Positions 3,600 to 61,098 of a DNA stretch of 64,000 nucleotides are shown in pieces. This DNA is from Oscillospiraceae bacterium. Its GTDB lineage: Bacteria > Bacillota > Clostridia > Oscillospirales > Oscillospiraceae. The stretch is taken from contig WRMH01000011.1 in the NCBI GenBank assembly GCA_009777235.1, positions 2,171 through 66,170 on the forward strand, given 5' to 3'. The notes beneath the pieces were generated by a model, which saw nothing but the letters and a program-made list of their open reading frames with translations, did not search any database and was not told where the DNA came from. Numbering within the stretch: the stretch's first letter is position 1; every line of letters starts with the position of its first letter. Both the position numbers and the translations under genes were made by a program.

Positions 3600-3608
3600 C
3601 ACCGTCAT

Positions 3609-4583: not shown

Positions 4584-4725
4584 ATCAAGCTTTCCTCCTA
4601 GAAAATATTGGCGGTGCTAAAAAAATGATGACATTTGTCTATTAATGTGCGGCAATCGTATAACCCTCCTTAGCCTTTTGTATCTCATGATTTTCGTAAT
4701 ACTTCAATTTCAATCCCGGGTGATT

Positions 4726-7425: not shown

Positions 7426-7586
7426 TATTTTGTATGGATACAAGTGTTACCGGAATATCGCGGTCGTGGCTTGGGTGCAAAATAGTATCTGAATTGGTGT
7501 CACGATTAAGGGATAAAGCACTGTTTGTCACGGTAAGCTGTGCATACCGATACAGGGTTTGCATATGTTCAGGTGTTTTACACTGA
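7426..7586 (+). pseudogene. GNAT acetyltransferase remnant (internal fragment, frameshifted)
   Basis: Directly after the APH stop: YFVWIQVLPEYRGRGLGAK-stop (GNAT motif A R-G-x-G-x-G). The reading continues in another frame as KIVSELVSRLRDKALFVTV. The N-terminal half is missing. Confidence 0.5.
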
Positions 7587-7634
7587 TGTCCAAACACTCA
7601 GTGAAATGCCCGACTTTGAAATGGCTGAAGTGCG

Positions 7635-7842
7635 AGCCGCGAAGGCAAATTCACCAACTAATGATACAATGAACCCCCTTATCTCTCACGCCGTGAACCC
7701 GACAGGGCAGTTTATTTTTCAAAAACATCCCTTGCTATTATCAGGATAACGTGCTATAATTAAACCGTTAAAGCGAGGTGAGGGCATGAAACACTATGCG
7801 CGGCTACTTAAAATGGGCTGTTTCACTTGGGAAGAACTGTGC
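7635..7842 (+). repeat. copy B of the ~207-bp direct repeat
   Basis: See copy A. The copies are spaced 4260 bp apart. Confidence 0.85.
7732..7760 (+). promoter_or_regulatory. sigma-70-like promoter of the AbiEi-like/YcaQ-like operon
   Basis: TTGCTA-17 nt-TATAAT, 25 nt upstream of the ATG at 7786. The same architecture (TTGCTA-17-TACAAT) is conserved in repeat copy A. Confidence 0.45.
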
Positions 7843-8556
7843 GCGGTGGTCGGGAACACAAAAACTGCTGAGTCACTTGCGAGCAGTTATGTAAAAAAAG
7901 GATATATCCAAAGCGTTAAGCGGGGTTTGTATGCGGCGGTTGATTTGGCTACAGGAGAAGCGGTCGTAAGCAAATTCCGCATAGCCGGTAAAATCACGCC
8001 GACATCCTATGTGTCCCATCACGCCGCTTTTGAATACTACGGTTGTGCCAATCAGGTGTCATATCAGGCCCAGGTGTCCTCCGATTCGGTGTTCGCTCCT
8101 TTTGAGTATGCGGGCATCACCTACGCTTATCTCGCTTCCCGTATCAGTGGCGGCATAATGACCCGCCCTGACGGTGTGCGAGTGACCAGCACGGAGCGTA
8201 CCGTTTTAGACGGCATACAGGACTTTGAGAAGATAATGGGGCTTGAGGAGCTGTTGCGCTGCCTTGAGCTGCTACCGACAGTCAAGGAAGAAAATCTACT
8301 TGCGCACCTCTCCGTATACGATAAGCAAGTTCTGTATCAAAAAACGGGATATATTTTGGAGCATTTCCGTGACACTTGGAATTTAAGCGATGACTTCTTT
8401 GCGGCTTGTGAATCCAAAATCGGAAAGAGTAAGCGGTACTTGTACAAACCTTCTGTGCATGAGAAAATGAAATACAACCGCCGATGGCGGCTTGTCGTGC
8501 CACATGATTTATTAAAAACATCAGACAAGGGGGTGAACGTCGATGCCGAAATATGA
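7786..8556 (+). CDS. AbiEi-like (COG5340-type) winged-helix antitoxin/regulator family protein
   Basis: 256 aa. N-terminal wHTH ending in KRGLYA. Central SYVSHHAAFEYYG and VTSTERTVLDGIQD blocks are as I recall for AbiEi family proteins. Confidence 0.6.
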   Translation: MKHYARLLKMGCFTWEELCAVVGNTKTAESLASSYVKKGYIQSVKRGLYAAVDLATGEAVVSKFRIAGKITPTSYVSHHAAFEYYGCANQVSYQAQVSSDSVFAPFEYAGITYAYLASRISGGIMTRPDGVRVTSTERTVLDGIQDFEKIMGLEELLRCLELLPTVKEENLLAHLSVYDKQVLYQKTGYILEHFRDTWNLSDDFFAACESKIGKSKRYLYKPSVHEKMKYNRRWRLVVPHDLLKTSDKGVNVDAEI

Positions 8557-9745
8557 TAAAACCGTATTAACCGAGCAAGCGCGGCGGTTTTTGCTTCTCA
8601 GACATGGACTTGCAGGCGAGCATAAATTCGTCGGCAAACAAGGGATTCTTGACTTTATAGAAATGGCGGGCTGTATTCAATATGACCCCATTGACGTTTG
8701 CGGGAAAAACCCCGAATTGGTTCTGCAATCAAGGGTTAAAAACTTCACAAAGGATACGCTTTATTCGCTTTTATACGAAGAAAGAAAGCTGATAGACTAT
8801 TTTGACAAAAATCTTTCCATATATAAAGTTGACGATTGGACTTATTTCGGAAGAACAAGAGAATGGTATTCTGCGAACAGCAGAAGCCGTGATGAAGTGA
8901 ATAAGGTTCGGGAACAGATTAAGAAAATTATAAAAGAGAAAGGCGCGGTAAGGTCGCAAGACCTTGACGAACTTAGCGGAAAAGTGAGTTGGTATTGGGG
9001 CGACACGAAGCTCTCCCGCGTAGCTCTCGAAACCATGTATTTTACGGGTGAGCTTGTTGTACATCACAAAAAGGGAACTAATAAATACTATGATTCAGCC
9101 GAAAATCTTATCTCTCAAAAATTCTTAAATGCAGCGGAGCCGCTCCCCGACGCAATCGACCACTTGACTTGGCGAGTAAAGCGGCGCATAGGCGCAGTCG
9201 GGTTGCTTTGGAAAAAGCCGTCTGATGCGTGGCTTGGAATCGGAGAATTGAAAGCGGCTGAAAGAAACGCGGTCTTTGAACATCTCATAAAAAGCGGAGA
9301 GATAACGCCCGTCCGCGTTGACGGAATAAAAGATACGCTTTATTGCCTAACCTCAGAGATACCCTTGCTTGATGAAGCGGCGGAGTTATCTTCGATTGAA
9401 AAAAGATGTGAATTTATTGCCCCGCTTGATAACCTGATGTGGGACAGAAAAATAATCAAAGCCATATTTGACTTTGATTATAAGTGGGAGATATACACAC
9501 CGCAGAAACAGAGAAAATACGGCTACTACACCCTACCCGTGCTATACGGCGACAATTTTGTCGGACGTATGGAGGCTGTATGCGACAGAAAGAACAAGGC
9601 TTTGATGTTTAAGAATTTTTGGGCGGAGGATGGCGTTAAAATCGGGCTTGACAAGAGCGGGGCATTTAAGCGCGCCTTTGAAAAACGGCTGAAAGCATTT
9701 GCGGAATTTAACGACTGCGCAAGCGTAAAAGGGTACGTGAAATAA
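8543..9745 (+). CDS. YcaQ/AlkZ-family (DUF1006, HTH_42) winged-helix DNA glycosylase-like protein
   Basis: 400 aa. CIQYDPIDV (Q-phi-D type motif). C-terminal KYGYYTLPVLYGDNFVGRME. Overlaps the upstream gene by 14 nt, with an AAGGGGG SD. Confidence 0.75.
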   Translation: MPKYDKTVLTEQARRFLLLRHGLAGEHKFVGKQGILDFIEMAGCIQYDPIDVCGKNPELVLQSRVKNFTKDTLYSLLYEERKLIDYFDKNLSIYKVDDWTYFGRTREWYSANSRSRDEVNKVREQIKKIIKEKGAVRSQDLDELSGKVSWYWGDTKLSRVALETMYFTGELVVHHKKGTNKYYDSAENLISQKFLNAAEPLPDAIDHLTWRVKRRIGAVGLLWKKPSDAWLGIGELKAAERNAVFEHLIKSGEITPVRVDGIKDTLYCLTSEIPLLDEAAELSSIEKRCEFIAPLDNLMWDRKIIKAIFDFDYKWEIYTPQKQRKYGYYTLPVLYGDNFVGRMEAVCDRKNKALMFKNFWAEDGVKIGLDKSGAFKRAFEKRLKAFAEFNDCASVKGYVK

Positions 9746-48548: not shown

Positions 48549-49142
48549 TTACCGAGACGGCAGCGGTAAAAATCTTAGTATAAGGGAATATATTTTTTGA
48601 TTGGCGAAAACACGCTCCACATAATTTTGCGTCTCCGAAAACGGTATATGGTCGAGGGTCTTTCCGTCGGAGCTGTAATCGGGGTTTTCCAGCCAGCGTT
48701 GCACATTCCCGCCCCCCGCATTGTAGGCGCACAGCGCGGTCTCAATATCTTCAAACCTCTTTATCTGCATATCCAAGTAAAAGCATCCGATTTGTATATT
48801 TATTCTGGGATCGAAAATTTGACCGTAGTCAAAATCTTCTATTCCCATCTGCGGCACAAGCCAATACGCCGTCTCCTCCATTATCTGCATCAACCCGCTC
48901 GCGCCCACGGCAGACACCGCGTCTTTGTCAAATTTGCTTTCGGCGTGAATGACCGCCATGACAAGCTCGGGCGCAAGAGAGTATTCTTTGGCGTATTCAC
49001 TGACTATGTCAAAATAATGCAGCGGATAAAAATGGCTCACCAGCATATAGGCGATGACGGCAATAATCACGGCGGATAAAAGCGTGAACAATAGTATTTT
49101 CCAAAAGGTCTTTATCTTTTTTCCCGGCATTGAATACTCCAT
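48549..49142 (-). CDS. membrane-anchored lytic transglycosylase (SLT domain)
   Basis: AVIHAESKFDKDAVSAVGASGLMQI catalytic Glu-Ser motif, AYNAGGGNV. Confidence 0.85.
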   Translation of the reverse strand: MEYSMPGKKIKTFWKILLFTLLSAVIIAVIAYMLVSHFYPLHYFDIVSEYAKEYSLAPELVMAVIHAESKFDKDAVSAVGASGLMQIMEETAYWLVPQMGIEDFDYGQIFDPRINIQIGCFYLDMQIKRFEDIETALCAYNAGGGNVQRWLENPDYSSDGKTLDHIPFSETQNYVERVFANQKIYSLILRFLPLPSR

Positions 49143-49200
49143 ACGTCAACGAGTGAAATCGTCAGAAAGATTGCGCGGACATCCTGTGATATATTTTGAC

Positions 49201-49229
49201 TTGACAAGCTATAGATAGTTTGATAAACT
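49201..49229 (+). promoter_or_regulatory. candidate sigma-70 promoter upstream of tRNA-Ala
   Basis: TTGACA (49201-49206), 17 nt, TAAACT (49224-49229). Confidence 0.4.
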
Positions 49230-49237
49230 CATCATGC

Positions 49238-49275
49238 TTTATAAATATGTGCGGCGTTTATAAATATGTGCGGCG
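49238..49275 (+). repeat. perfect tandem duplication of a 19-nt unit
   Basis: TTTATAAATATGTGCGGCG x2 (49238-49256, 49257-49275). Confidence 0.85.
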
Positions 49276-49326
49276 AACGAATGGCATTGAAAATTGAATA
49301 AATTTGTGATAGAATAAGCACATCAT

Positions 49327-49402
<76 letters not shown>

Positions 49403-49409
49403 TTTTACA

Positions 49410-49438
49410 GTAAAGCCTTGAGAATATCAAGGCTTTAC
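49410..49438 (+). terminator. 12-bp perfect hairpin after tRNA-Ala
   Basis: GTAAAGCCTTGA-GAATA-TCAAGGCTTTAC followed by TTATT. Confidence 0.6.
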
Positions 49439-49521
49439 TTATTCACGAAGAATGGCCTAACTTTGCCGATTCTTCGCATTCTCCGTCTTGTTGCGATTTT
49501 AATACGGCACATATCCGAAAT

Positions 49522-49872
49522 TTGAGCTTATCCGAAAGCGGCCGGTTGCCGCTGTGTCGCCAAAGCACGTCTATGGAGCGGTTGCTGTCACTCTCGACTG
49601 CGACGGCAATATATTTACGGCGAAAGGCAAAAGCGATTGCTACGTTCTGGGCGGCGAAAAAGAAGCCACTGACCGCTGCTGTTATCACTGCTTTGCTCAA
49701 AGATGGGCGTGTTTCGCTCAAAGGTCTCCATTCGGAGAAAACAGGCAAAAAATACGACGCAACAGTCATTTTGGACGATACCGGCGATGGCTTTGTGAAC
49801 TTTAAGTTGGAGTTTGACCCCGCGGCAGGAAAAAACGTAAGAAAAAATGGCAAATGGCTAAAAAAATATTGA
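49522..49872 (+). pseudogene. 3-prime fragment of a conjugative-element-type DNA topoisomerase III (C-terminal repeat only)
   Basis: FWAAKKKPLTAAVITALLKDGRVSLKGLHSEKTGKKYDATVILDDTGDGFVNFKLEF matches the repeated ...GKKLT...LL.KG.T..IKGF.SK.GK.FDA.L.L... tail of TopB-like proteins. No topoisomerase core lies upstream. Confidence 0.55.
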
Positions 49873-49986
49873 AAAAGCGTGAAAATAATGTTATTATGTC
49901 TACGTAGGTTGCCGTATAGTGACTGATTAAGTTGCAACGGCTGATAAAAAGAAAAGAATAGGTTTATTAGAAAGGACGTAAAGAAA

Positions 49987-51063
49987 ATGGCAGAATTAGA
50001 AAACAGCAAGGCATTATCATTCGAGGTTTTATTAGCGGAAAGAGAAGAAAGACAAAAAATCGCAGGTTCGGGAAAGTTTTATGAGTTTCCGCGCGAGTTA
50101 ATTCTGAGAAAAAAAGTGGTACCGTTACAGGAATTTATACAAGACCCTGACGGAAAGACTACCGCGACGTCGAAGTTAGACGCGCAGGGCGAGCCTGTAA
50201 TGGGCGTAAGCGTTACTGTTTCAATGCCCAAAGGCAGCACGTATGAAGGTTATTCATTTACCACTACGCGCCCAGTGTTCAAGGCAAGCGAGTTTGGGGT
50301 TGATGAAAATGGAAAAAGAGTAAAAATCGGAGAAAAAGAAGGCTACAATGCGATTAAGCTCTATTCTGAAGCATCGTACACCATTGAGAAAGTCCCTTAC
50401 AAGTTACGAGAGGATGGCAAGCGGGAGATGAACGAGCGCGGCTACCCTGTGCCTGACTGGGATAAAAAAGAAACCAAAACGATTACGGGCGCAGAGCTTG
50501 GTGAGGTTCTTCTAAGTGCTGACAAGGCTATTGAATCACAAAAAAGGCGTTCATGGTGCGAGGTAAAAAAGAGTGATATAGTCAGCCTTTCGGTACAGCC
50601 GAAAACAAGGTATGACGAAACGCAATTAAACGACAAAGGTGAGCTTGGAAAGTATGTGCCTGTAATAGATGAACAAACGGGCAAGCCGGTAATGGAAAAT
50701 GTCGCAAAGATACGGATACCGGAAGGGACTGAGCTTGCGGGGTTTGTGCTTACGCTCAAAAACCCCCACTTATACCCTGCAAAGCTTTATGTTGACGGTC
50801 AGGAAGCGGGAGTTGACGAGAGCAAGCTGCGCTTTTCGCTGCAACAGGTGCGTTCGGACGGTGAGACAAGGACTTACAGTCTTCAAAAAACGCCGTATGT
50901 AAGAGATGAGAACGGCAATGTGGTGATGGAAAAAGTCAACCTCAACGGTAACGATATTACAAGATCGAAGCTGGACTGGGCTAATACGGAGCATAAATCC
51001 GTAAACGCTTCACAGTTGCAATATGCTTTTGGCGGCGGCAGGGAGACACAGATGTCTCAATAG
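49987..51063 (+). CDS. hypothetical protein (358 aa)
   Basis: Clean ORF with SD AAAGGA, Lys/Glu-rich, no domain recognised. Confidence 0.6.
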   Translation: MAELENSKALSFEVLLAEREERQKIAGSGKFYEFPRELILRKKVVPLQEFIQDPDGKTTATSKLDAQGEPVMGVSVTVSMPKGSTYEGYSFTTTRPVFKASEFGVDENGKRVKIGEKEGYNAIKLYSEASYTIEKVPYKLREDGKREMNERGYPVPDWDKKETKTITGAELGEVLLSADKAIESQKRRSWCEVKKSDIVSLSVQPKTRYDETQLNDKGELGKYVPVIDEQTGKPVMENVAKIRIPEGTELAGFVLTLKNPHLYPAKLYVDGQEAGVDESKLRFSLQQVRSDGETRTYSLQKTPYVRDENGNVVMEKVNLNGNDITRSKLDWANTEHKSVNASQLQYAFGGGRETQMSQ

Positions 51064-51075
51064 AGGTAGTATAAT

Positions 51076-51324
51076 ATGCGAGGCAATTATAAATATAAAC
51101 CCGAAGACTTCGCCGGGATGTTAGGACTTCCGCAAGAGTTGCAAGTTTTTTATGAGTTGCTGGAGTGTTACAAGAGCGGTTCGTCGGATAGCAACTGGTT
51201 TAGATTAAGAAATCATTGGGAAAATTTATTCTTCCTAATCAAAGCCAGAGGAGTTGAAGGCAACTTAAGCCCTGTAATGGCACAAGAAATGCATGAATAT
51301 TTGGAGATTTTGATTAATGATTGA
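51076..51324 (+). CDS. small hypothetical protein (82 aa), coupled to the HipA-like kinase
   Basis: Its stop overlaps the next ATG by 8 nt (ATGATTGA). No obvious HTH. Confidence 0.55.
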   Translation: MRGNYKYKPEDFAGMLGLPQELQVFYELLECYKSGSSDSNWFRLRNHWENLFFLIKARGVEGNLSPVMAQEMHEYLEILIND

Positions 51325-52273
51325 CTTCGATACCGGTCAAAAACGGTTAAATAAGTTCACCGGGTCTGAAAAGAAGACAACCATTTTATATGATGGTTTT
51401 GTCTACATGATAAAGTACCCCGACCCTATAAGAACCCAAAAACTCAAAGGCGTAATTAGCTACAAAAATAATCAATTTTCAGAACACATTGGTTCAAGCA
51501 TATTCAACTCCTGCGGTATTGAGTCACAAGAAACGGTTTTAGGTTGTTATACCGATACATCAGGAAAAAGAAAAACTGTAGTCGGCTGTAAAGATTTCAC
51601 CCAAAACGGCGGGGTGCTTTATGAAATTGACAAGTTGTCAAACGACATCGCCCCGGACGAAGAAAAGTTAAAAACAACCATCGAAAACGTCAATCGCATA
51701 ATTGACGAAACCGAACTAATCAAGAACAAAAAAGCAATCAAAGACGGATTTTGGAATATGTTTATAATTGATGCTTTAATCGGAAACAAAGACAGGCATT
51801 TCGGAAATTGGGGTATTCTCGTCAAAGATGACGACATAACATTCGCCCCCGTTTACGATTGCGGCTCATCTCTTGGCGCCTTGTTGGACGATGGTGAAAT
51901 GGCACGATTATTAGATAAGCCGGACGAGTTGAAAAGCGCGGAATATAACGTCCCTTCTGTTTACTACTCAGGTGGCAAGCGGATATTTTATCACGAAATA
52001 TTCAAAGGCCCGCCAAGCGGATTAGCCGAAGCCATAAAACGCACCGTCCCCAAAATCAACATGGAAAAAATATATAGTATAGTTGATTCTACCCCACAAA
52101 TATCCGAAATTAGAAAAGAGTACATGAAGAAAGCAATGACTATGCGATATGAGCAGATATTCATGCCTGCATTAAAAAGGATAATGCGAATCGAAAAAAG
52201 CAAAGCACCTAACCAAGATATACTCCGAAACAACGCACCGGAGAATGGCGACAGTGGCAAGGCAAAAGTTTAA
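51317..52273 (+). CDS. HipA_C-domain (HipA/CtkA-like) Ser/Thr kinase
   Basis: FIIDALIGNKDRHFGNWGIL catalytic loop followed by APVYDCGSSLG. 318 aa, lacking the N-terminal HipA couple domains. Confidence 0.75.
   Translation: MIDFDTGQKRLNKFTGSEKKTTILYDGFVYMIKYPDPIRTQKLKGVISYKNNQFSEHIGSSIFNSCGIESQETVLGCYTDTSGKRKTVVGCKDFTQNGGVLYEIDKLSNDIAPDEEKLKTTIENVNRIIDETELIKNKKAIKDGFWNMFIIDALIGNKDRHFGNWGILVKDDDITFAPVYDCGSSLGALLDDGEMARLLDKPDELKSAEYNVPSVYYSGGKRIFYHEIFKGPPSGLAEAIKRTVPKINMEKIYSIVDSTPQISEIRKEYMKKAMTMRYEQIFMPALKRIMRIEKSKAPNQDILRNNAPENGDSGKAKV
52214..52270 (+). repeat. 57-nt direct repeat, copy 1 (3-prime end of the HipA-like gene)
   Basis: CAAGATATACTCCGAAACAACGCACCGGAGAATGGCGACAGTGGCAAGGCAAAAGTT. 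54/57 identical to 52993-53049. Confidence 0.85.
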
Positions 52274-52292
52274 AGAAAGAGGGAAAATTGTT

Positions 52293-52700
52293 ATGAGGTA
52301 TATTACGGGACAACACGCCCTTAACATTCCCTGCAAGCTTTTAACTTGCGGAGACTGGCATCAATCGGCATTACAATGGAACACTCCCTTTTTTCGCGAT
52401 AGCGCTGACAGCATATATCGTGATTATGGTATAGAGCAAAATGTTTCTATCCCGGAACATACCGAAAAATATAGTGTTGCTAACCATATTAGAGCGTTGT
52501 TGGATTTGTTGGAGCTGGGAAAATTTTCTTTAGCTCAGGGAATGAACAAGGATTTTATTTGTAACGATACTTATACAGAAGAAATATTTGCCCATGTAAT
52601 AAAGCTTTCGAATTCTTCGTTGTGGTTGGATATAGATCATTTCATGGGAAAAGAGTATTTATCTGTATGGCTTAATTATAAGAAAGAGGTACTCGCATGA
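52293..52700 (+). CDS. hypothetical protein (135 aa)
   Basis: Start at MRYITGQHALNIPCKLLTCGDWHQSALQW (AGAGGG SD). The longer ORF from 52245 overlaps the kinase tail. Confidence 0.55.
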   Translation: MRYITGQHALNIPCKLLTCGDWHQSALQWNTPFFRDSADSIYRDYGIEQNVSIPEHTEKYSVANHIRALLDLLELGKFSLAQGMNKDFICNDTYTEEIFAHVIKLSNSSLWLDIDHFMGKEYLSVWLNYKKEVLA

Positions 52701-53166
52701 GCTATTTGTGGAAAGAACACGAGTGTGCGATTTACTCTTTTCTCAAATATCTTAATATTACTCTCAACTTTCCGGGCAAACTGTATTGCTTTTGCGTAGT
52801 GCTTTTGAGCACAAGGGAAATGAGCAGTTTGATTATCTTGTAAGAGAACAACACGACGAGTTAATCAATGACAAAAAGCTTGCTGATGATTTTTTGTCTA
52901 TGTATGACAAGCTCGGACTGCTCTATGATGAAAATGAAAAGCAAATACTTTCTTTAATTGCTCATAATGACGATCAGCGGAATGTTTATGGTCAAGATAT
53001 ACTCCGAAACAACGCACCAGAGAATGGCGGGAGTGGCAAGGCAAAAGTTATGGCAAACAAAGACACAGCAAAATACAAAGAACGAGCTGCTGAAAAACAA
53101 AAGAGCAAGCAGCGTGTGAAAACGATAAACGGTAAAGCTGACACTTCCCGCAACGAGACTTTATAG
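52697..53166 (+). pseudogene. hypothetical gene apparently split by a frameshift near 52785
   Basis: ATG 52697 overlaps the upstream TGA and reads MSYLWKEHECAIYSFLKYLNITLNFPGKLY... to a stop at 52843. A second frame from 52786 reads ...LRSAFEHKGNEQFDYLVREQHDELINDKK...QDILRNNAPENGGSGKAKVMANKD... to 53166. Confidence 0.35.
52993..53049 (+). repeat. 57-nt direct repeat, copy 2
   Basis: CAAGATATACTCCGAAACAACGCACCAGAGAATGGCGGGAGTGGCAAGGCAAAAGTT. Both copies encode QDILRNNAPENG(D/G)SGKAKV. Confidence 0.85.
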
Positions 53167-53177
53167 TCACTTTTTCA

Positions 53178-53390
53178 ATGAACAGACATGAAAAAAATGA
53201 AGATGGTGTTGTTACGCTCCCCTATCCTGTATATAGCGAAGAACTCATAAAGTTCATTGATGTTTTCTATAAAAGTGGACTATCGGTGGATAACTATCAA
53301 GATGAACTGAATATGGGAACTTCGGGTCTGCTTGACCCGAAGTTGAAAAGCAGTAATAAGTTTTATCAATGCAATTTGGTGATTTTGTAA
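53178..53390 (+). CDS. short hypothetical ORF (70 aa), possibly a gene fragment
   Basis: ORF only. No SD or domain recognised. Confidence 0.3.
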   Translation: MNRHEKNEDGVVTLPYPVYSEELIKFIDVFYKSGLSVDNYQDELNMGTSGLLDPKLKSSNKFYQCNLVIL

Positions 53391-53421
53391 CCGTAGATAA
53401 ATATAGATAATCTAGAAAGGA

Positions 53422-53718
53422 ATGGTCTTACCGATGAACGAAATAATGGAAAGGGGCTTTCAATATATTACTGAACTCCCCCCATTGATAGTTAATATTG
53501 GAGTGATCCTTGGTATACTCGCAGTGCTTATTCCATTATGTTTATTTTTCGTGCGAAAAATAAAACGTAGATATGCCTATTGGGTCAAATGGGGAAAGCA
53601 TTTTAAAAAAAGCTCCCCTGAAGACCGGATTGACCACATTATGGCTTCGCTTGATAATGGGACAAGTGAAGTTATCGTAGAAGAACGTGTCACAAAGGGG
53701 GATAACTCAAATGAATAA
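53422..53718 (+). CDS. small single-pass membrane protein (cassette gene 1)
   Basis: 98 aa (start uncertain: 53422/53434/53446). TM LPPLIVNIGVILGILAVLIPLCLFFV followed by the basic stretch RKIKRRYAYWVKWGKHFKK. Overlaps the next gene by 8 nt. Confidence 0.55.
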   Translation: MVLPMNEIMERGFQYITELPPLIVNIGVILGILAVLIPLCLFFVRKIKRRYAYWVKWGKHFKKSSPEDRIDHIMASLDNGTSEVIVEERVTKGDNSNE

Positions 53719-54655
53719 TAATTTATCAGATAAAATTAAAAGAATATTTCATTTTAAAAATGGGTATTCTTCACATGATCAACTCTCGGGGTCAGTAATT
53801 CCGGAGCAATTTGAGACTGCGGTTTTGAAACATATTATTTGCAATAACACTGCCATATCTGTTCCTAATCATAATTATCCTTTATTATTAGGGATACAAG
53901 GTCCGTACGGTTATGGAAAAACATATATGGTGAAAGAAATTTGTAAAAACTATAATATATTTTTGACCTCGCTATCATCATCTCAACTAAGTGGAGAAAT
54001 GGAAGGCGATTCGAAAAAAAAACTTCAAAGAGAATACGAAGCCATATGTATAGAAGTTGCAAAAAGAAAACATTGTGGCTTGCTTCTAATTGACGATTTC
54101 CATTTAACCATTGCTACGGAAGATACTATTGGAAAAACAGTAAATTCAAATTTGTTAGCGTCTTACTTAATGAGTTTATCCGATAACCCTAATATAGCAG
54201 GTATTAGAGTTCCGATAATCTTAACTGGAAATAATTATAAACGGGTATATCCTGCGATCGTTCGAGATGGGCGAATGGACATATTCACTTGGAATCCCAC
54301 AATAGATGATATCGCTCCAATTGTACATCATATTTTTAATTCTAAATTTGTCGGTATAGAGAATGAAATAATTTCGACGATGATACAACAATACTCGGAT
54401 ATGAATATTGCTTTTTTTGAACAAATATCACAAGACTTAATGAACAGTAATATTATACAAACAATAAATATGTTCAAGACAAAAAAAGGGGGACTATCTA
54501 TAGCAGAGCTAAGTAATTCAGTTCGATCTTCATTATCTACTTTAGAATTAACCGAAGATGCTTTATTATTTTTTTGCCAGAGAAGAAAAGCATCTATACT
54601 TCTTGATTTCGAAAACTCAACTAAAAACAAGGTGGAAAATGGAGAGGAAAGCTAA
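53711..54655 (+). CDS. AAA+ ATPase of the classic clade with Rubisco-activase-like signature blocks (cassette gene 2)
   Basis: AAGGGGGA SD. Walker A GIQGPYGYGKT, Walker B CGLLLIDDFH, sensor-1 region VPIILTGNN, Arg-finger region IVRDGRMDIFTWNPT, and TVNSNLLASYLMSLSDNP block. Confidence 0.8.
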   Translation: MNNNLSDKIKRIFHFKNGYSSHDQLSGSVIPEQFETAVLKHIICNNTAISVPNHNYPLLLGIQGPYGYGKTYMVKEICKNYNIFLTSLSSSQLSGEMEGDSKKKLQREYEAICIEVAKRKHCGLLLIDDFHLTIATEDTIGKTVNSNLLASYLMSLSDNPNIAGIRVPIILTGNNYKRVYPAIVRDGRMDIFTWNPTIDDIAPIVHHIFNSKFVGIENEIISTMIQQYSDMNIAFFEQISQDLMNSNIIQTINMFKTKKGGLSIAELSNSVRSSLSTLELTEDALLFFCQRRKASILLDFENSTKNKVENGEES

Positions 54656-55296
54656 TGGATAATAAGAATAATGTTACCGTCAAAACGTCAATAGCTTCGC
54701 CTGAATTATCACTTAAATCCATCAATAGAGTCTCGGCAGTATATAATATTTGCTATGAAATATTTAAAATATTTCATGCACCCAAGTCGACGTTTCGAAT
54801 CTTATATGATGGGATCATGGATGAACATGTCTTGAAAAAAATGACTCTATATTTTATATCACCTGATGATATAGTAGAATTTATGTTGATTTTGTCGATT
54901 GATTTAGAGTTACATAACGTCATCATGCAAACCTCTAACGTGGGTTCTATCCAAGTAAATAAGCAGCTATCTACGGTCGAACAACTTGTCGGAAATAGGG
55001 AGGGATTTAAACAGCTATATAAGGAAATGATGAAAACTAAACGAATAAAAACCCGGATAGTTACTTATCGATATATAACACTTAGCTCTGATGAGCATAA
55101 ACGAATAGACAAAAAATTGGGATTAAAAACACTCACTGGTGATTTTACAATGAGTGGTAGATATCGTACCTATAAAATAACTCCCAAACAACTGTCAGAA
55201 ACATCTTTGACGATTCGTGTGCGGAAAAATGATATGTCCCCATCAGCAATGCGGCACTTTATAAATATATTAAGGTCATTTTGGGACTCTTTTTAG
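54655..55296 (+). CDS. hypothetical protein, 213 aa (cassette gene 3)
   Basis: The ATG shares one base with the AAA+ stop (TAATG). GGAGAGG SD. Soluble and Lys/Ile-rich. No catalytic motif recognised. Confidence 0.65.
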   Translation: MDNKNNVTVKTSIASPELSLKSINRVSAVYNICYEIFKIFHAPKSTFRILYDGIMDEHVLKKMTLYFISPDDIVEFMLILSIDLELHNVIMQTSNVGSIQVNKQLSTVEQLVGNREGFKQLYKEMMKTKRIKTRIVTYRYITLSSDEHKRIDKKLGLKTLTGDFTMSGRYRTYKITPKQLSETSLTIRVRKNDMSPSAMRHFINILRSFWDSF

Positions 55297-55362
55297 TCCT
55301 TCAATTAGCATGGCATGTTAATTTAGCAAAAATCGTGAAGTCCGTCAAGGGTAAATGAACGG

Positions 55363-55395
55363 CTGCGCCGCTCAAATGGCGGCAGCGCAGTTTTT
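55363..55395 (+). terminator. Rho-independent terminator after the cassette
   Basis: CTGCGCCGC...GCGGCAGCGCAG imperfect hairpin followed by TTTTT (55391-55395). Confidence 0.6.
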
Positions 55396-55550
55396 CCCAT
55401 CAGTCGGAGGGCAGGCATAACACACTAAACTTTGCCTACGGCAAAAGCGGCACGGCAGCAATATGAAAAACAGTCGGGCAAAAAAGTGGTATCATCGTTA
55501 AACGCAAAAAACCTTAAAGAGTTAAAAGGGAAAGAGGAAGGTAAGTCCGA

Positions 55551-56375
55551 GTGAAAGCTGTAATATATGCCCGTTATAGTTCGGACAGTCAGCGAGAAGA
55601 ATCGGTTGAGGGGCAAATACGCGAATATACCGAGTACGCCAAACACAACAGTATTACCATTGTTGGCACATATCTTGACCGCACCCTGTCAGCAAAGACG
55701 AATAACCGTCCGGAATTTCAACGCATGATAAAAGATAGCGCGAAGAATATTTTTGATGTAGTTATCGTCTGGAAATTAGACCGCTTTTCCCGCGACCGCT
55801 ACGACAGCGCACATTACAAACGGATTTTGAAAAAGAACGGCGTAAAAATAATATCGGCAAAAGAGAATATTTCAGATGAACCGGAGGGCATCATTCTTGA
55901 ATCAATGTTAGAAGGAATGACAGATTGGTATTCCGCTGAACTCTCGGAGAAAATACGTCGGGGACAAAAAGAAAACGCTTTGAATGGCAAGAACAACGGC
56001 GGCGGTATTCCATTGGGTTATATACTGGGCGCTGATCAAAAACTATTGGTTGACCCTCTCACCGCTCCGCTGGTTCAAGAAGCGTTTCCCCGATATGCCG
56101 AAGGGGAAACAGTCAGAGCGATTGTCGAGTCCTTCAATGAGCACGGATTGACTACAAAGGAAAACCAGCCGTTCAATATGAACAGCTTCAATGTCTTATT
56201 CAATAACAGAAAATACATAGGTGAATATAAGTATCAAGATATTATCATTCCCGGCGGTGTTCCCGCTCTCGTTTCGGTAGAAGCCAGACAGAAAAACCCA
56301 CTACTATTACAAATGCGGGCTGCCAAACGTGGTAAAGGCTGTAAGCGGAAAGCGGTCAAACAGGATTGGATTTAG
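55551..56375 (+). pseudogene. large serine recombinase, truncated and frameshifted
   Basis: GTG start with GAGGAAGG SD. Intact resolvase domain (AVIYARYSSDSQ catalytic Ser, VWKLDRFSRD) and part of the recombinase domain up to GGVPALVS. The zinc-ribbon signature HYYYKCG then appears in another frame (about 56296 onward), and the ORF stops at 274 aa instead of ~500+. Confidence 0.75.
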
Positions 56376-56461
56376 CGGATTGTCGTTATTTGGACAGCTA
56401 CTCAAGTTTTGAAGGACGTGGAATGGGCATTTCTCTATGCCTCAGCGCAAAACGGAGAGTT

Positions 56462-57175: not shown

Positions 57176-57336
57176 TATATCACGAGCGCAAGCGGGAGGC
57201 AAAGCCGGATAGCAAAATCAGAAAAGAATTGCAATATGCGCCGCATGATGGTAAAATTTATCGCGGAGTGTGAAGCTATATGAATAGAACAGATTGCCGC
57301 TTTCGCGGATATATAAAAAACAGATGCAAGTCGGTA

Positions 57337-60300
57337 ATGGGGAGGATTCTTACCCTCTTGCTCCTTGTCATCGTCATTTTAAACACAGCCAGCTGCGCCC
57401 GGGACACACAGAGCCCCGAAGCCTCCGAAGCCCCATTTATGGCGCTCCGTGACATTCCTGACATAACGGACGCGGAAATCGAAGCCATAGCGAAGCTGCA
57501 AGCCGCAGGTTCTCCTTTGATATACGCCGCCACCCACAGCACCGAGCTGTTTGAGAAAACAGACGGAACGCTCGGCGGCTATACGGTTTTGTTTTGCGAC
57601 TGGCTCTCGGAGCTTATCGGGATTCCCATTTTGGTCGAAACGCACAGCATAACGGAGTTGGACGCGGGGCTTGAAAGCGGCATATTTGACCTTGCGGCCG
57701 TCATGGCTACACCGGATAGAGCCGAGATATTTTCCCTAAGCGGTCCTATTATCCAGCGAATTTTTGTAAATTACCGTTATGAGGGCAGCCCGACGCTTTC
57801 TGAAATCAGCCGTGAGAGACTGCCGCGCTATGCTTTTACCGAAAACTCCGCCGTGATTCCGATAGTCGCAGACGCGCTCGAACCCGGAACTTATCTGGAG
57901 GTTATCGTAGCCGATGAGGACGCGCTATACGAAGCTCTCAAAAACGGAGATGCCGACGTGTTTGTGCTCACAGAGTCATTGTCGGCGTCGTTTGACCAAT
58001 ATGACGGGATATATATCGAAGATTTCTTGCCGCTGACTATTCTCCACGTCTCCGTGGCGGCGGCAAACCCGGATTATGATGCCGTTATCTCCGTGATTAC
58101 CAAGGCTGTGCAAAACGGCGCCGCCGGATATTTGGCCGATTTGCATATGCAAGGAAACTTAGATTACAGGCGTCACAAATTCTCCTCTATGCTCACCGGC
58201 GAGGAGCTTGAATATCTGCAAAATAACCCTGTAATACCGTTTGCCACCCAATACGCATCTTATCCTACCAGCTTTTACGACTCACACGAAGACATCTGGA
58301 ACGGTATGGTCTTTGATATTTTGAGCGAAATTCAAGAGTTCATCGGTTCGGACTTTGAAATGGTTCACGATGAACATTTGGAGCTTCCCGGCCTGATGGA
58401 GCTTTTGGAGAATGAAACGGCTTACTTCATGCCAAATCTTATCCAAACCCCCGAACGGGCGGGCAGATTTGACTGGCTGCGCACATATTATTTCACAGAC
58501 CGGTATGCCCTTTTGTCCAAGCAGAGCTTTCCAAACGTCGAGCTAAACGACATACCCACCAAAAGAGTTGGCCTTATAAACGGCACGGCGTTTGCCGAGG
58601 CATTCAAGGCATGGTTTCCCAACGCGCTTTACGTGACGGAATACCCGACCGCGGATGGAGCTTATATGGCGCTTGACAGGGGCGAGGTTGATCTTGTCAT
58701 GTCCATACAAAGCAGGCTGACCACATTGACCAATTATTACGAGCTTTCAGATTATAAGGCAAATTATCTGTTTGACGACGGTTTGCACGTCACTTTTGCG
58801 GTCAACAAAAACCAAACAGTTCTCCGTTCAATCCTCGACAAAGCTCTCGGACTTATAGACACCGACAGAATCACCGAGCAATGGGTGAGCAGGACATACA
58901 ACATCGAAACCATGCGCCTGCAAGCGCAGCGCCCGTGGCTGGTCGGCGCGATCGCGCTGTCTTCCGTCATGCTTGCCCTTGTGCTGATTTGGTTTTACAC
59001 ACGCAGCAAAGCATTGGTGCAACGGGCGGTAATGAGCAAGACGCGGGCGGCGGCAAAAAAAATGCAAGAGCTTGAAGAAGAAAAACACACCCTTGAGGAA
59101 GACCGCCGGCATTTGTCGGAAATCTTAGATACGCTGCCTGTGGGAATCAGAATACTGAGCCTTGACGACTGGACGCTTCTTTATTCCAACAAAGCCTGTT
59201 TGGACGTTTTTGGCTGCTCGTCTTTTGAAGAACAGGTGAAAGGGCGCGACGGACTTGGTTTTATGCCGGAAATACAGCCGGACGGAGTACCTACGGCGGA
59301 ACATCTCGCCGAAATCGCCAACACCGACAGATTTGCGGCGGAGCTTCAATGCTTTAAATTGGACGGCCAGCCGTTTATCTGCCGTATCACATCCATTACG
59401 ATAAATTACGCCGGACACCGCGCTTCCCTCGCGGCGATGGAGGATATAACCGCTGATATGGAGCATCAGGAAAGGCTTCGCAACGCCGTCATCAAGGAAC
59501 AGGAAGCAAATCAGCTAAAGAGCCAGTTTCTGGCGCACATGAGCCATGAGATACGGACTCCCATGAACGCGATACTTGGCATTACGGAGATAGAATTGCA
59601 TAGCGAATCCTTAAGCAAAGAGACAAAAGAATCTCTGGGCATGATATATGAATCCGGAAATTTGCTGATGGGCATCATCAATGACATCTTAGACCTTTCG
59701 AAAATCGAATCCGGGAAATTAGAAATAATGCCGGCCAAATACGACATTCCGAGCCTCATAAACGACACCGTCCAAATAAACCGCATACGCTATGAGAGCA
59801 AACCCATAGAATTTTCACTTGATATAGACGAAAACACGCCCCTTAGTCTGCAAGGTGACGCGCTCCGCTTGAAGCAAATCTTAAACAACATTCTCGCCAA
59901 TGCCTATAAATATACCGAAAAGGGCAATATCAAGCTGTCTGTTTCCTCAAAGGCATCTTCCAAAGACGGGGAAATCACTCTCATCTTGCAAATCAGCGAC
60001 ACAGGTCAAGGCATGACCCAAGATCAGCTTGATAAGCTGTATCTCGAATACACCCGCTTCAATTTAGAAGTCAACATCGCAACGGAGGGAAGCGGGCTTG
60101 GCATGACGATTACAAAGCGTCTCCTCGATTTGATGGGCGGCGAAATATTGGTGGAGAGCGAGCCGGGCAAAGGCTCGACATTTACCGTATACATCCCGCA
60201 AAAGCGTGTAAACGAGCTTGTCTGCGGCGCTCATCTCGCCGAAGTAATACGAAACTTCCGTTTTCAAAGCGCGGCAGTTGAGCAAAGACGCCAAACATTG

Positions 60301-61098
60301 CGCGAGTATATGCCTTATGGTAGCGTCCTTATTGTGGACGATGTAAAATCAAACCTATATGTCGCCAAAGGTATGCTTCTGCCATACGGATTAAAGGTAG
60401 ATTCGGCAAACAGCGGGGCGTCGGCCATTGAAAAAGTCAAAGACGGCAATGAATACGACATCATCTTTATGGATCACATGATGCCCGGAATGGATGGGAT
60501 AGAGGCGACAAAACTCTTGCGCGAGATGGGCTACACCCGGAGCATCATCGCGCTGACCGCCAACGCCTTGGTTGGACACGCCGAGACATTTTTGAAAAAC
60601 GGCTTTGACAGCTACATTCCAAAGCCGATTGATTCGCGTGAGCTGGATAACATTCTGATCAGTTTTATCCGCGACAAAAAACCGCCGGAGGTCGTCGAGG
60701 CGGCATGGCAGCAGCGATGGGTGCAGCAGGAAGATCAGAAGGACGAAGAACCAGCGGCATCCGATTATTTGCAGGCCGCCGGCATGGATTTGTCCGAGAT
60801 TGAAACTGATTTCCTGCAGGACGCAGAAAATTTCATGAACATTTTGGATAAATTTCGCGCAAAAAACGGCGGTTTTGATGACGGCGATTTTGGCGAAGCG
60901 GATTTAAGAGACTATGAAATCGCCGTGCACGGTATGAAAAGCGCCCTTGCCATTATAAATGAGGCGGAGCTTTCAGGTTTTGCCTACAAATTGGAGCAAG
61001 CCGCGACGGCAAATAATCTTGATCTGATCCGCTCGGAAACATCCGCGTTCATAGACGCGCTTTGCGCCCTGTGTGATAAAATACGTGCCCGCGGTTAG
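57337..61098 (+). CDS. hybrid sensor histidine kinase/response regulator with two extracytoplasmic solute-binding-like domains, PAS, HisKA, HATPase, REC and Hpt
   Basis: Lipobox-like LNTASC. TM WLVGAIALSSVMLALVLIWFY. H-box SHEIRTPMNAILG. G-box GSGLGMTI. REC DHMMPGMDG. Hpt HGMKSAL. Confidence 0.9.
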   Translation: MGRILTLLLLVIVILNTASCARDTQSPEASEAPFMALRDIPDITDAEIEAIAKLQAAGSPLIYAATHSTELFEKTDGTLGGYTVLFCDWLSELIGIPILVETHSITELDAGLESGIFDLAAVMATPDRAEIFSLSGPIIQRIFVNYRYEGSPTLSEISRERLPRYAFTENSAVIPIVADALEPGTYLEVIVADEDALYEALKNGDADVFVLTESLSASFDQYDGIYIEDFLPLTILHVSVAAANPDYDAVISVITKAVQNGAAGYLADLHMQGNLDYRRHKFSSMLTGEELEYLQNNPVIPFATQYASYPTSFYDSHEDIWNGMVFDILSEIQEFIGSDFEMVHDEHLELPGLMELLENETAYFMPNLIQTPERAGRFDWLRTYYFTDRYALLSKQSFPNVELNDIPTKRVGLINGTAFAEAFKAWFPNALYVTEYPTADGAYMALDRGEVDLVMSIQSRLTTLTNYYELSDYKANYLFDDGLHVTFAVNKNQTVLRSILDKALGLIDTDRITEQWVSRTYNIETMRLQAQRPWLVGAIALSSVMLALVLIWFYTRSKALVQRAVMSKTRAAAKKMQELEEEKHTLEEDRRHLSEILDTLPVGIRILSLDDWTLLYSNKACLDVFGCSSFEEQVKGRDGLGFMPEIQPDGVPTAEHLAEIANTDRFAAELQCFKLDGQPFICRITSITINYAGHRASLAAMEDITADMEHQERLRNAVIKEQEANQLKSQFLAHMSHEIRTPMNAILGITEIELHSESLSKETKESLGMIYESGNLLMGIINDILDLSKIESGKLEIMPAKYDIPSLINDTVQINRIRYESKPIEFSLDIDENTPLSLQGDALRLKQILNNILANAYKYTEKGNIKLSVSSKASSKDGEITLILQISDTGQGMTQDQLDKLYLEYTRFNLEVNIATEGSGLGMTITKRLLDLMGGEILVESEPGKGSTFTVYIPQKRVNELVCGAHLAEVIRNFRFQSAAVEQRRQTLREYMPYGSVLIVDDVKSNLYVAKGMLLPYGLKVDSANSGASAIEKVKDGNEYDIIFMDHMMPGMDGIEATKLLREMGYTRSIIALTANALVGHAETFLKNGFDSYIPKPIDSRELDNILISFIRDKKPPEVVEAAWQQRWVQQEDQKDEEPAASDYLQAAGMDLSEIETDFLQDAENFMNILDKFRAKNGGFDDGDFGEADLRDYEIAVHGMKSALAIINEAELSGFAYKLEQAATANNLDLIRSETSAFIDALCALCDKIRARG

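Follow-up and report, generated by a model that had tools for sequence, protein, structure and literature searches.

Eukaryotic checkpoints characteristically rely on HORMA switches that a dedicated AAA+ unfoldase resets, and to our knowledge bacterial HORMA switches have so far been described only in type III CBASS, always together with TRIP13/Pch2. Abortive-infection modules with membrane effectors include CBASS or Pycsar operons whose effectors have one to four transmembrane segments. The origin of green-type Rubisco activase (Rca) within the AAA+ superfamily is obscure. TRIP13/Pch2 threads the HORMA N-terminus to disassemble closed complexes, and the Pch2 pore loops hold this N-terminus in an every-second-residue pattern (Ye et al., 10.1101/694695). 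Here we describe a three-gene cassette in a 64,000-nucleotide stretch of Oscillospiraceae DNA (the window), in which the gene for an Rca-like AAA+ ATPase (g2) is preceded by a gene for a small membrane protein (g1) and followed by one for a HORMA-like protein (g3).

Several described systems share features with the cassette, and each also departs from it. The TRIP13/Pch2-HORMA pairs (with Mad2, Rev7 or Hop1, or as Cap6 with Cap7/Cap8 in type III CBASS) likewise place a classical-clade AAA+ protein of ~300 aa next to a HORMA protein of ~170–210 aa with a flexible N-terminal tail, and type III CBASS shares the prokaryotic accessory-gene setting. However, the cassette ATPase is Rca-like rather than TRIP13-like, and its HORMA-like family has no sequence similarity to the Pfam or PADLOC HORMA models. 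There is also no CD-NTase, nucleotide-activated effector or PADLOC Cap6 match in the cassette, and the third position is taken by a variable upstream protein, here the small membrane protein. The membrane-effector abortive-infection modules of CBASS and Pycsar similarly have a small membrane protein in an operon with cytoplasmic regulators on an accessory island, but the cassette has neither a nucleotide signalling enzyme nor a nucleotide-binding domain, and g1 matches no PADLOC effector. IetAS (IetA ATPase and IetS protease) is another small defence operon with an ATPase, and g2 has a weak partial match to IetA (14 bits, residues 177–275); the E-value of 0.005 is far short of the significance needed for membership, and there is no IetS-like protease in the cassette.

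The cassette is composed of three open reading frames, all on the + strand (53422–53718, 53687–54655 with a GTG start and an ATG at 53711, and 54655–55296; Table 1). When the region was shuffled 1000 times the longest open reading frame averaged 80 aa and never exceeded 177 aa, which is below the lengths of g2 and g3; as homologues of all three are also present elsewhere, these are real genes. A sequence-only reading of this DNA had proposed that the genes are translationally coupled, that g2 and g3 have good Shine-Dalgarno (SD) sequences, and that the cassette is far more AT-rich than its surroundings, and all three points hold. The g1 stop and g2 ATG overlap by 8 nt, the SD-like AGGGGG lies 9–14 nt 5′ of the g2 ATG, and g3 is preceded by GGAGAGGAAAG and overlaps g2 at TAATG. 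The GC content of the cassette is 0.334, compared with 0.479 for the whole window and 0.48–0.52 for the flanks. The same reading held that the cassette is closed by its own terminator. A hairpin followed by a U5 tract is indeed present (MFE −21.5 kcal/mol), but with a z-score of only −1.56 and missed by a consensus scan, and a terminator at this position is plausible.

Table 1. Features of the cassette and of the surrounding low-GC tract (window coordinates).
Feature	Coordinates	Strand	Basis or remarks
tRNA-Ala(GGC)	49327..49402	+	left edge of low-GC tract
HipA_C-like kinase	51317..52273	+	Pfam 4e-8; PADLOC candidate PDC-M03A 1e-29
AbiEi-like protein	52245..52700	+	Pfam/PADLOC
AbiEii-like fragment	52786-53166		after AbiEi-like gene
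DUF6508 fragment	53178-53390		after AbiEii-like fragment
g1, small single-pass membrane protein	53434..53718	+	ORF, hydropathy, homologues
g1/g2 junction	53696..53718	+	SD-like AGGGGG 53696-53701, g2 ATG 53711, g1 stop 53716-53718
g2, Rubisco-activase-like AAA+ ATPase, 314 aa	53711..54655	+	Pfam, PDB phmmer/profile
g2/g3 junction	54640..54657	+	SD-like tract GGAGAGGAAAG before g3 ATG, TAATG stop/start overlap
g3, HORMA-like protein, 213 aa	54655..55296	+	AlphaFold model, Foldseek, family search
Probable intrinsic terminator closing cassette	55361..55395	+	GC-rich hairpin ~55361-55390, then TTTTT (U5)
Truncated large serine recombinase, 274 aa	55551..56375	+	Resolvase domain + part of Recombinase domain

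The g2 product is a classical-clade AAA+ protein of the Rca-like group (PF00004, 4e-15), with a Walker A motif (GPYGYGKT), Walker B (LLIDDF), sensor-1 (TGNN) and the arginines of RDGRMD, and these ATPase motifs are invariant in an alignment of 16 sequences. The closest homologues in database searches are a bacterial family, followed by plant and cyanobacterial Rca. The suggestion that g2 is closer to Rca than to generic AAA proteins is borne out by 16 orders of magnitude with the single sequence and 35 with the profile: phmmer against PDB gives Rca chains at 9e-24, 2e-22 and 1e-21 with Cdc48 next at 1e-7, and the profile gives Rca at 3.5e-49 against 5.7e-14 for generic AAA+ proteins. There is no TRIP13/Pch2 chain among the best 60 PDB matches of either g2 or its profile. 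The green-type enzymes (plant Rca, and the cyanobacterial Rca-like protein with an SSUL domain; PDB 4w5w, 3t15 and 6z1d) are thus the best relatives of g2, with 26–30% identity over ~230 residues and an alignment that spans the whole AAA+ core, including the shared blocks PLxLGIxG..GxGK(S/T), TVN (in the pore-loop-2 region), RVPII(V/L)TGN(D/N) and RDGRM(E/D).

In spite of this similarity, there are clear differences between g2 and the activases. The alignment begins at Rca residue 65 and g2 residue 27, and the N-terminal Rubisco-binding domain is absent from g2, as are the PF21228 lid and SSUL; PF00004 is the sole Pfam match of g2 and of its bacterial relatives, whereas true Rca also carries PF21228 (with or without PF00101). 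Where Rca has the arginine pair of its GALRARV segment, g2 reads EQISQDL, and the partner of g2 is HORMA-like. In neighbor-joining trees with an FtsH outgroup, plant and cyanobacterial Rca are monophyletic in 180 of 200 bootstraps, and g2 groups apart from them, within a distinct Firmicutes clade (190 of 200). With E. coli FtsH as the root the deep order is unresolved, with all non-Rca sequences forming a single clade in only 28 of 200 replicates. It is therefore very improbable that g2 is a true activase acting on a Rubisco or Rubisco-like protein from another part of the genome. Such a role would fit with Rca being its best database relative, but not with its position outside the Rca clade, the missing Rca-specific domains, a conserved partner that is HORMA-like rather than Rubisco, or hosts that are gut Clostridia, Actinobacteria and Chloroflexi. 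Of the 10 ORFs scanned on the island around the cassette, none is related to Rubisco.

The nearest homologues of g2 (53–66% identity) are solo genes whose neighbours are rpoD/dnaG or a PAS-histidine kinase; neither g1 nor g3 occurs within at least 6 kb of them. URO-D-like and flavodoxin-like genes also adjoin solo copies. The ATPase thus need not act on a HORMA partner. No homologue was found by tblastn of g2 against sequenced plasmids and phages, or by scanning IMG/VR contigs with the g2 profile.

The product of g3 had been described as an orphan, and a word-indexed search does return g3 alone. This description is incorrect; neighbour comparison together with profile and exhaustive searches uncovered a family, which in the exhaustive search of 1.84 billion representatives comprises at least 47 clusters (50% identity). 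A scan of metagenome contigs with the g3 alignment recovered only the contig of one related locus, L009. The HORMA fold, in which three helices back a beta-sheet and the C-terminal region is mobile, was among those that the sequence-only reading named as worth checking for g3, and it is the one that the AlphaFold model of g3 (pLDDT 87.9, pTM 0.79) matches. All of the best 50 Foldseek matches in PDB are HORMA proteins (E 3.1e-5 to 3e-3; probability 0.98–1.00; TM 0.34–0.52; rmsd 6–8 Å), with near full-length alignments at 4–10% identity, and they cover five subfamilies (HTP-1/2, Rev7, Mad2, E. coli HORMA and P. aeruginosa HORMA2). The listed top PDB matches of an independent model from a shallower alignment are likewise all HORMA, and the sole confident match in the viral library BFVD is Atg13 (probability 0.96), also a HORMA protein. 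The predicted structure of g3 is thus a high-confidence one whose best PDB matches are exclusively HORMA proteins, with moderate superposition scores. There is no sequence or profile match to g3 in PDB and no match in PADLOC, and no Pfam family is matched consistently by 35 members of the family at E ≤ 1. The g3 family is undescribed, without sequence membership in the known HORMA families (Pfam, PADLOC Cap7/Cap8). Residues 1–19 form an unstructured tail in the model ahead of the folded domain, and in distant relatives the tail is conserved at every second residue (T-x-T-x-T), which matches the pattern in which Pch2 pore loops hold the HORMA N-terminus (Ye et al., 10.1101/694695).

It is quite improbable that the likeness of g3 to HORMA proteins is a coincidence of fold, with g3 an unrelated alpha/beta adaptor or specificity factor, the ATPase acting on some other client, and no switch. 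The TM-scores of at most 0.52, the low identity and the absence of HMM-level similarity to Pfam or PDB would fit such a coincidence. However, the agreement of all 50 best PDB matches across five subfamilies at high probability argues against it, as do the same kind of result with the shallower model and with a different library, and an obligatory AAA+ neighbour that mirrors the TRIP13-HORMA pairing.

The g1 product is 94 aa if translation starts at 53434 and 98 aa from the mechanical ORF start at 53422. The former is the more likely true start because there is an AAGGA 12 nt upstream, the alignment with the homologue L008_90 starts there, and independent gene calls give 94 aa. There is one transmembrane helix at about residues 17–40 (hydropathy up to 3.0), and an N-out/C-in topology with a tail of ~54 aa is predicted from a net charge of −2 on its N-terminal side and seven K/R in its C-terminal flank. 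With this predicted topology, the tail would be in the cytoplasm with g2 and g3. We found homologues at the equivalent position in L008 (L008_90; 57% identity, 1e-35) and L010 (L010_94; 33%, 1e-4), and no family in Pfam, NCBIfam, PADLOC or PHROGs. Conservation of g1 is limited to the closest relatives of the cassette, and other loci have a different protein in the upstream position.

The pairing of g2 with g3 is much more widespread than the trio. The two-gene unit, with a HORMA-like gene immediately after an AAA+ gene, occurs in at least five phyla (Firmicutes, Chloroflexi, Actinobacteria, Armatimonadota, and one Anabaena locus), and the coding ends overlap or abut. The whole trio is homologous in L008/L009 and L010–L012 and decayed in L013, and a HORMA-like gene lies directly 3′ of the AAA+ gene in L019–L024, L088, L027/28, L053, L085–87, L026/56, L052 and L037/47. 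The more distant HORMA-like set aligns with the g3 family at an hhalign probability of 98.3% (E 2.6e-14). The upstream partner varies among loci and in most is not a small transmembrane peptide. We considered the possibility that upstream partners share a C-terminal closure-like motif (an amphipathic helix followed by G/D-x-I/V-x-I/V-x-x-acidic), but this was seen only by eye; an HMM from five partners failed to recover the held-out L019, L020 and L023, and a g1-family HMM failed to find the L021/L022 partners. Weak A4-HMM matches (E 0.2–6) that had suggested a HORMA-like neighbour of true Rca in Chamaesiphon are to ribosome recycling factor.

As anticipated, the paired homologues are often near defence or mobile genes; such a context is present in about 10 of 16 independent loci, as judged by eye and with no enrichment statistic. 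In addition to the window itself (HipA-like PDC-M03A, AbiEi and a recombinase), examples include bSEFIR-TIR-CHAT in L008 (2e-32), ISL3 in L013, PDC-S05 in L021, a recombinase remnant in L023, Schlafen AlbA_2 in L024, a divergently oriented patatin effector in L053 (7e-15), PtuA-like (4e-47), DUF6414 and Peptidase_C13 genes in L085, and a TIR-like gene in L087; L086 has apparent transposase/integrase ORFs downstream, judged from sequence only. Approximately one-third of the paired loci are without defence context, including L019, L020, L022, L026 and L027, which have ordinary neighbours, and some are beside LytTR two-component genes, FtsX, PhoH, a K+ channel or a CAAX protease. Apart from the L053 patatin, there is no CD-NTase or nucleotide-activated effector among the neighbours scanned at the other loci. 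When the cassette was compared with known systems, defined by the HMMs of PADLOC-DB v2.0.0, there was no system match (no families for g1 or g3, and only the IetA match for g2). Full-text literature searches revealed no earlier account of an Rca-like ATPase paired with a HORMA protein; one candidate precedent (PMC8926400) concerns the MoxR-type CbbQO activase and is not relevant.

The cassette lies in a low-GC tract (~49000–56400). A cluster of HipA-like and AbiE-like genes precedes it and a truncated serine recombinase follows (Table 1); the HipA-like module and the recombinase had been noted previously. The proposal that this is a tRNA-Ala island is supported by the tRNA gene at the edge of the tract, but not by an att repeat, the best candidate for a tRNA-derived repeat being 70% identical over 27 nt, which is at chance level. 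A tRNA island is thus plausible, with its borders undefined. PADLOC and Pfam scans of the 10 island ORFs found no match to CD-NTase or SAVED/effector models.

On balance, we think it somewhat more likely than not that the cassette forms a TRIP13-independent switch of three components, with an Rca-clade AAA+ protein and a HORMA-fold protein as its two-gene core and with a role in conflict. By analogy with the action of TRIP13/Pch2 on Mad2, Rev7 and CBASS HORMA proteins, a g2 hexamer would take hold of the N-terminal g3 tail within its pore and partly unfold g3, returning it to the free open state from a closed one bound to a partner. The variable upstream gene, here g1, would provide the output or the client of the switch. 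The module would most likely serve in conflict, whether as an anti-phage or abortive-infection system or in addiction to the element. Closure of the HORMA protein on a trigger peptide might license the membrane protein to damage the membrane, with the ATPase holding the system off in uninfected cells, and no CD-NTase or second messenger would be needed. Remodelling of g3 by the ATPase is an inference that is well motivated by the ranking of Rca among g2 relatives, the predicted HORMA fold, the co-occurrence of g2 and g3, and the lack of a PADLOC match. The case for a role against phage or in abortive infection is no more than suggestive.

A different explanation, somewhat unlikely in our estimation, is that this is a housekeeping or regulatory chaperone module in which the Rca-like ATPase and a HORMA-like adaptor act on a cellular, possibly membrane-associated client, and that the copy in the window has hitchhiked on the island. 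The core-looking neighbourhoods of the solo g2 orthologues fit this, as do the LytTR, FtsX, PhoH, K+ channel and CAAX protease genes beside paired loci, the lack of detected carriage on phages or plasmids, and the fact that the known Rca relatives are metabolic chaperones. However, homologues are sparse and patchily distributed, the upstream partner is hypervariable, the GC content of the cassette is 14 points below that of the host, and there are repeated TIR, SEFIR-CHAT, Septu-like, patatin, AbiE/HipA-like and IS/recombinase neighbours. These traits are typical of accessory conflict genes and argue against housekeeping.

Alternatively, the cassette could be a toxin-antitoxin-like addiction module that stabilises the island, with g1 a membrane toxin restrained by g2 and g3, although we regard this as improbable. 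The island is integrative and decayed and carries TA-like genes (HipA-like, AbiEi/AbiEii), g1 resembles many type I/II membrane toxins in being a small single-pass membrane protein, and the three genes are tightly coupled in translation. On the other hand, the conserved core is g2–g3 and not g1, with something other than a small transmembrane peptide upstream in most loci, no known antitoxin approaches the elaborateness of a 314-aa ATPase together with a 213-aa switch protein, and several loci are off recognisable mobile elements.

The reading of the cassette as an ATPase-reset HORMA switch can be extended, tentatively and with a good deal of doubt, to a second, TRIP13-independent HORMA/AAA+ partnership, with an ATPase that is the closest relative of green-type Rca, that would constitute a CD-NTase-free immune or abortive-infection system with interchangeable outputs, and to the recruitment of Rca, in the cyanobacterial lineage, from HORMA-remodelling conflict ATPases. 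The outputs named as interchangeable are the small membrane protein, a kinase and Ig-like proteins. The small proteins and the compact operon make biochemical and genetic tests straightforward. If true, a second independent pairing, in which another ATPase clade and a new HORMA-like family work with swappable partners and no cyclic-nucleotide enzyme, would mean that the combination of switch and resetter is more general and more modular than has been assumed, and the cassette would be a candidate defence system missed by current catalogues. The g2-type families represent the first clear non-photosynthetic sister groups of green-type Rubisco activase, and the role of Rca before Rubisco thus becomes a testable question.

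The three ORFs that the sequence-only reading had grouped as a cassette are present as described and encode a small membrane protein (g1), an ATPase resembling Rubisco activase (Rca; g2), and a 213-aa protein (g3). The end of g1 overlaps the g2 ATG by 8 nt, g2 and g3 share a TAATG, and SD-like purine tracts are located 5′ of both g2 and g3. The second ATG of g1 (53434) has an AAGGA tract at the right spacing, is where the alignment of its homologue in L008 (the closest full trio) begins, and is the start selected by independent gene callers, giving a product of 94 aa. The GC content of the cassette is 33.4%, compared with 47.9% for the window and 48–52% for the flanks, and g2 has a GC3 of 0.24; in 1000 shuffles of the AT-rich stretch the longest ORF was 177 aa, and none reached 314 or 213 aa. 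The hairpin downstream of g3 is a reasonable terminator, and is not listed by a simple consensus terminator scan. A gene fragment ends 31 nt 5′ of g1, and the cassette may therefore be transcribed from the promoter-like site upstream of this DUF6508 remnant.

Features of the cassette, its surroundings and related loci
Locus	Feature	Coordinates	Strand	Details
window	tRNA-Ala(GGC)	49327-49402		left edge of low-GC tract, which ends near 56400
window	HipA_C-like kinase	51317-52273		PADLOC candidate PDC-M03A, 1e-29
window	57-nt direct repeat, left copy	52214-52270		codes for C-terminal tail of HipA-like ORF
window	AbiEi-like gene	52245-52700		1e-59; AbiEii-like fragment, then DUF6508 fragment, 3′ of it
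window	ORF	52786-53166		contains right repeat copy
window	57-nt direct repeat, right copy	52993-53049		95% identical to left copy
window	promoter-like site	53138-53167		
window	DUF6508 fragment	53178-53390		70-aa ORF; sole match DUF6508 positions 27-62, E 7e-5
window	g1	53422-53718	+	mechanical ORF
window	g2	53711-54655	+	from ATG; ORF listed from GTG 53687
window	g3	54655-55296	+	
window	terminator candidate	about 55361-55395		GC-rich hairpin, then five U; MFE -21.5 kcal/mol, z = -1.56
window	large serine recombinase	55551-56375		right of cassette; 274 aa, positions 88-350 of 651-position integrase profile
window	hybrid sensor kinase	57280-61098		1272 aa, directly right of island
L008	SEFIR-TIR-CHAT protein	5450-8950		1166 aa; PADLOC bSEFIR 2e-32, CHAT 5e-16
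L051	182-aa ORF, Chamaesiphon	4319-4867		
L053	patatin region, Anabaena sp. CRKS33	1569-4595		CBASS-type phospholipase effector models, 7e-15
L069	182-aa ORF, Chamaesiphon	4566-5114		
L086	Ser/Thr kinase region, Armatimonadota MAG	5050-7357		upstream partner; Pkinase 5.6e-43
L097	P0107, g3 family	860-2218		452 aa

The surrounding region is a decayed integrative island, within which the cassette looks intact. No tRNA-derived direct repeat was found at the island borders. The serine recombinase is truncated, and the island has probably lost its ability to excise. The two copies of the 57-nt repeat enclose the AbiEi-like gene and an AbiEii-like fragment, an arrangement suggesting that related cassettes were joined here by insertion or recombination. 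The neighboring sensor kinase ORF appears, as judged from sequence, to contain periplasmic-binding-like repeats, PAS, HisKA/HATPase and receiver domains, and an HPt-like tail.

In Pfam, g2 matches only the generic AAA domain (PF00004, 4e-15). Against all PDB sequences, the top three matches are Rubisco activases (Arabidopsis, 9e-24; a Nostoc Rca-like protein, 2.3e-22; tobacco, 1.2e-21), and the next protein is Cdc48 (1e-7). A profile of 16 bacterial g2 relatives matches Rca at 3.5e-49 and the next protein at 5.7e-14, with no TRIP13/Pch2 chains among its best 60 PDB matches; the Rca blocks named in the sequence-only reading are the same ones aligned by HMMER. Despite this likeness, g2 is very unlikely to be a true Rubisco activase on the grounds of phylogeny and accessory domains, and no Rubisco-related gene is among the 10 island ORFs scanned around the cassette. 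The alignment begins only at Rca residue 65 and the Rca N-domain is thus missing, and g2 has neither the PF21228 lid nor an SSUL domain, both of which occur in true Rca. Neighbor-joining trees recover true Rca as a monophyletic group in 180 of 200 replicates when FtsH is the outgroup, and put g2 into a Firmicutes clade apart from it (190 of 200). We take g2 to be an active ATPase because its family shows no variation in Walker A, Walker B (IDDF), sensor 1 (TGNN) or the arginines of RDGRM. Rca-clade proteins of about 300 aa without an SSUL domain are present at Chamaesiphon loci; a conserved upstream ORF there was considered as a g3 relative, but is ribosome recycling factor with a weak chance HMM match.

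The earlier description of g3 as an orphan does not hold. A word-indexed search returns only g3 itself, but relatives are encoded 3′ of g2 homologues in L008 (49.5% identity, 5e-72), L010 (25%, 5e-22) and L013 (28%); a profile search identifies eight further members, and searching 1.84 billion representatives exhaustively with HMMER finds 47 at E ≤ 1e-3. No family member matches a Pfam family and the g3 profile matches no PDB sequence; at the sequence level this HORMA-like family is new. An AlphaFold model using a 9-sequence alignment was mediocre (pLDDT 70), and all of its top PDB matches listed are HORMA proteins. Using 35 sequences (pLDDT 87.9, pTM 0.79), HORMA proteins are all of the 50 best PDB structure matches, and include HTP-2, HTP-1, Rev7, Mad2, E. 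coli CBASS HORMA and P. aeruginosa HORMA2, with E-values down to 3.1e-5, probabilities of 0.98–1.00, TM-scores of 0.34–0.52, and alignments near full length. The sole confident match in a viral structure library is Atg13, also a HORMA protein. The predicted fold of g3 is thus very probably HORMA-like, with moderate superposition scores, and residues 1–19 form an unstructured tail N-terminal of it. In one family member, P0107, the HORMA-like domain is fused to about 260 further C-terminal residues with many coiled-coil-like repeats.

The full trio, with coding ends overlapping or abutting, is also present in L008/L009 and L010–L012, and in L013 it is decayed and adjoined by an ISL3 transposase. 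Among genomes scanned with the g2 profile, one for each species, relatives besides cyanobacterial Rca occur in termite-gut Clostridiales, Lachnospiraceae, Oscillospiraceae and Eubacteriales, as well as in Chloroflexota, Streptomyces, Actinomadura, Nonomuraea, Armatimonadota, a Campylobacteraceae MAG, and others. The g3-family HMM matches the gene directly 3′ of the ATPase in L019–L024 and L088 (3e-16 to 8e-63) and, always in this same position, more weakly (3e-8 to 5e-3) in L027/L028, L053, L085, L086, L026/L056, L087, L052 and L037/L047. Profile–profile comparison confirms homology between this distant set and the g3 family (98.3%, E = 2.6e-14, 167 columns), and the conserved core is therefore the pair of ATPase and HORMA-like protein. 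The upstream gene varies and this third component is interchangeable: it encodes a single-pass membrane protein in the window, L008, L010, L019, L021 and L022, a protein that combines Ig-like domains with an amphipathic helix at its N-terminus in L020, L023, L024 and L088, a coiled-coil protein with a hydrophobic N-terminus in L052, L056, L085 and L087, a helical protein in L027/28, and a kinase in L086.

The closest g2 relatives (53–66% identity; L001–L007 and L016–L018, from termite-gut Clostridiales MAGs and metagenome contigs) are solo genes, and their fetched flanks contain neither g1 nor g3, including when searched with tblastn. Their neighbors are rpoD/dnaG, a flavodoxin-like gene, or a large PAS-histidine kinase. 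These genes are nested inside the HORMA-linked Firmicutes clade, which suggests that the partners were secondarily lost or relocated. L025, L050, L082 and L090 are also solo. In two MAGs the solo gene is just 3′ of apparent tRNA-like sequences on the opposite strand.

Defence or mobile genes are beside the module in about 10 of 16 independent loci, and five loci have ordinary neighbors; the association is suggestive, as a tally of loci and not a statistic. These are the HipA-like, AbiE-like and recombinase genes of the window, the SEFIR-TIR-CHAT gene of L008, ISL3 (L013), PDC-S05 (L021), a recombinase remnant (L023), Schlafen AlbA_2 (L024), the L053 patatin, a Septu PtuA-like ATPase (4e-47) with DUF6414 and a C13 peptidase (L085), a TIR-like gene (L087) and, by sequence judgement only, apparent transposase/integrase ORFs downstream in L086. 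The L008 SEFIR-TIR-CHAT gene is 1.6 kb 3′ of the trio and has an IS-type HTH transposase gene upstream. The L053 patatin is encoded divergently from Rca-like ATPase, HORMA-like and XRE-type HTH genes, so that an effector of CBASS-like type accompanies HORMA and AAA+ components there without a CD-NTase. No cassette component matches PADLOC v2 systems, and searches of sequenced phages, plasmids and IMG/VR contigs gave no homologue.

We are confident that the cassette combines an Rca-like ATPase with a HORMA-like protein, and lean slightly towards a model in which g2 resets a g3 switch with g1 as output and a role in conflict. The extreme N-termini in an alignment of distant HORMA-like proteins (downstream genes of L026, L027, L028, L037, L047, L053, L056 and L085–L087) have a nearly invariant T-x-T-x-T-x-T(Y/F)-x-R alternation, in which T-x-T-x-T precedes the first conserved arginine. 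This resembles the every-second-residue conservation of the HORMA segment engaged by the Pch2 pore loops, and bacterial Pch2 does not act on HORMA lacking its disordered N-terminus (Ye et al., 10.1101/694695). From this alternation, and from an active classical-clade AAA+ protein obligately adjacent to a HORMA-like protein whose N-terminal tail is flexible, we infer that g2 would be an unfoldase resetting g3, which would itself be a switch binding a peptide or partner. The g1 protein has a predicted N-out/C-in topology with a 54-residue cytoplasmic tail, and may be the output or an anchored client of the switch. The biological role is most likely conflict, either abortive infection or element addiction via membrane damage, with the ATPase keeping the system off; going from conserved adjacency to remodelling, and on from remodelling to defence, takes an inferential step each time.

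The way of working would be like that of TRIP13–HORMA modules. However, the cassette falls outside CBASS type III, as its ATPase is of another clade and both a CD-NTase and a nucleotide-activated effector are absent. In the full texts searched, which take in only part of the subscription literature, no description of the pairing of an Rca-like ATPase with a HORMA-like protein was found. The original observation is thus real, and richer than was visible from the sequence. The finding would represent a variant of the HORMA switch with an AAA+ resetter, a design already known, and, with deep branching not resolved in the trees here, the cassette family bears on the origin of Rubisco activase.
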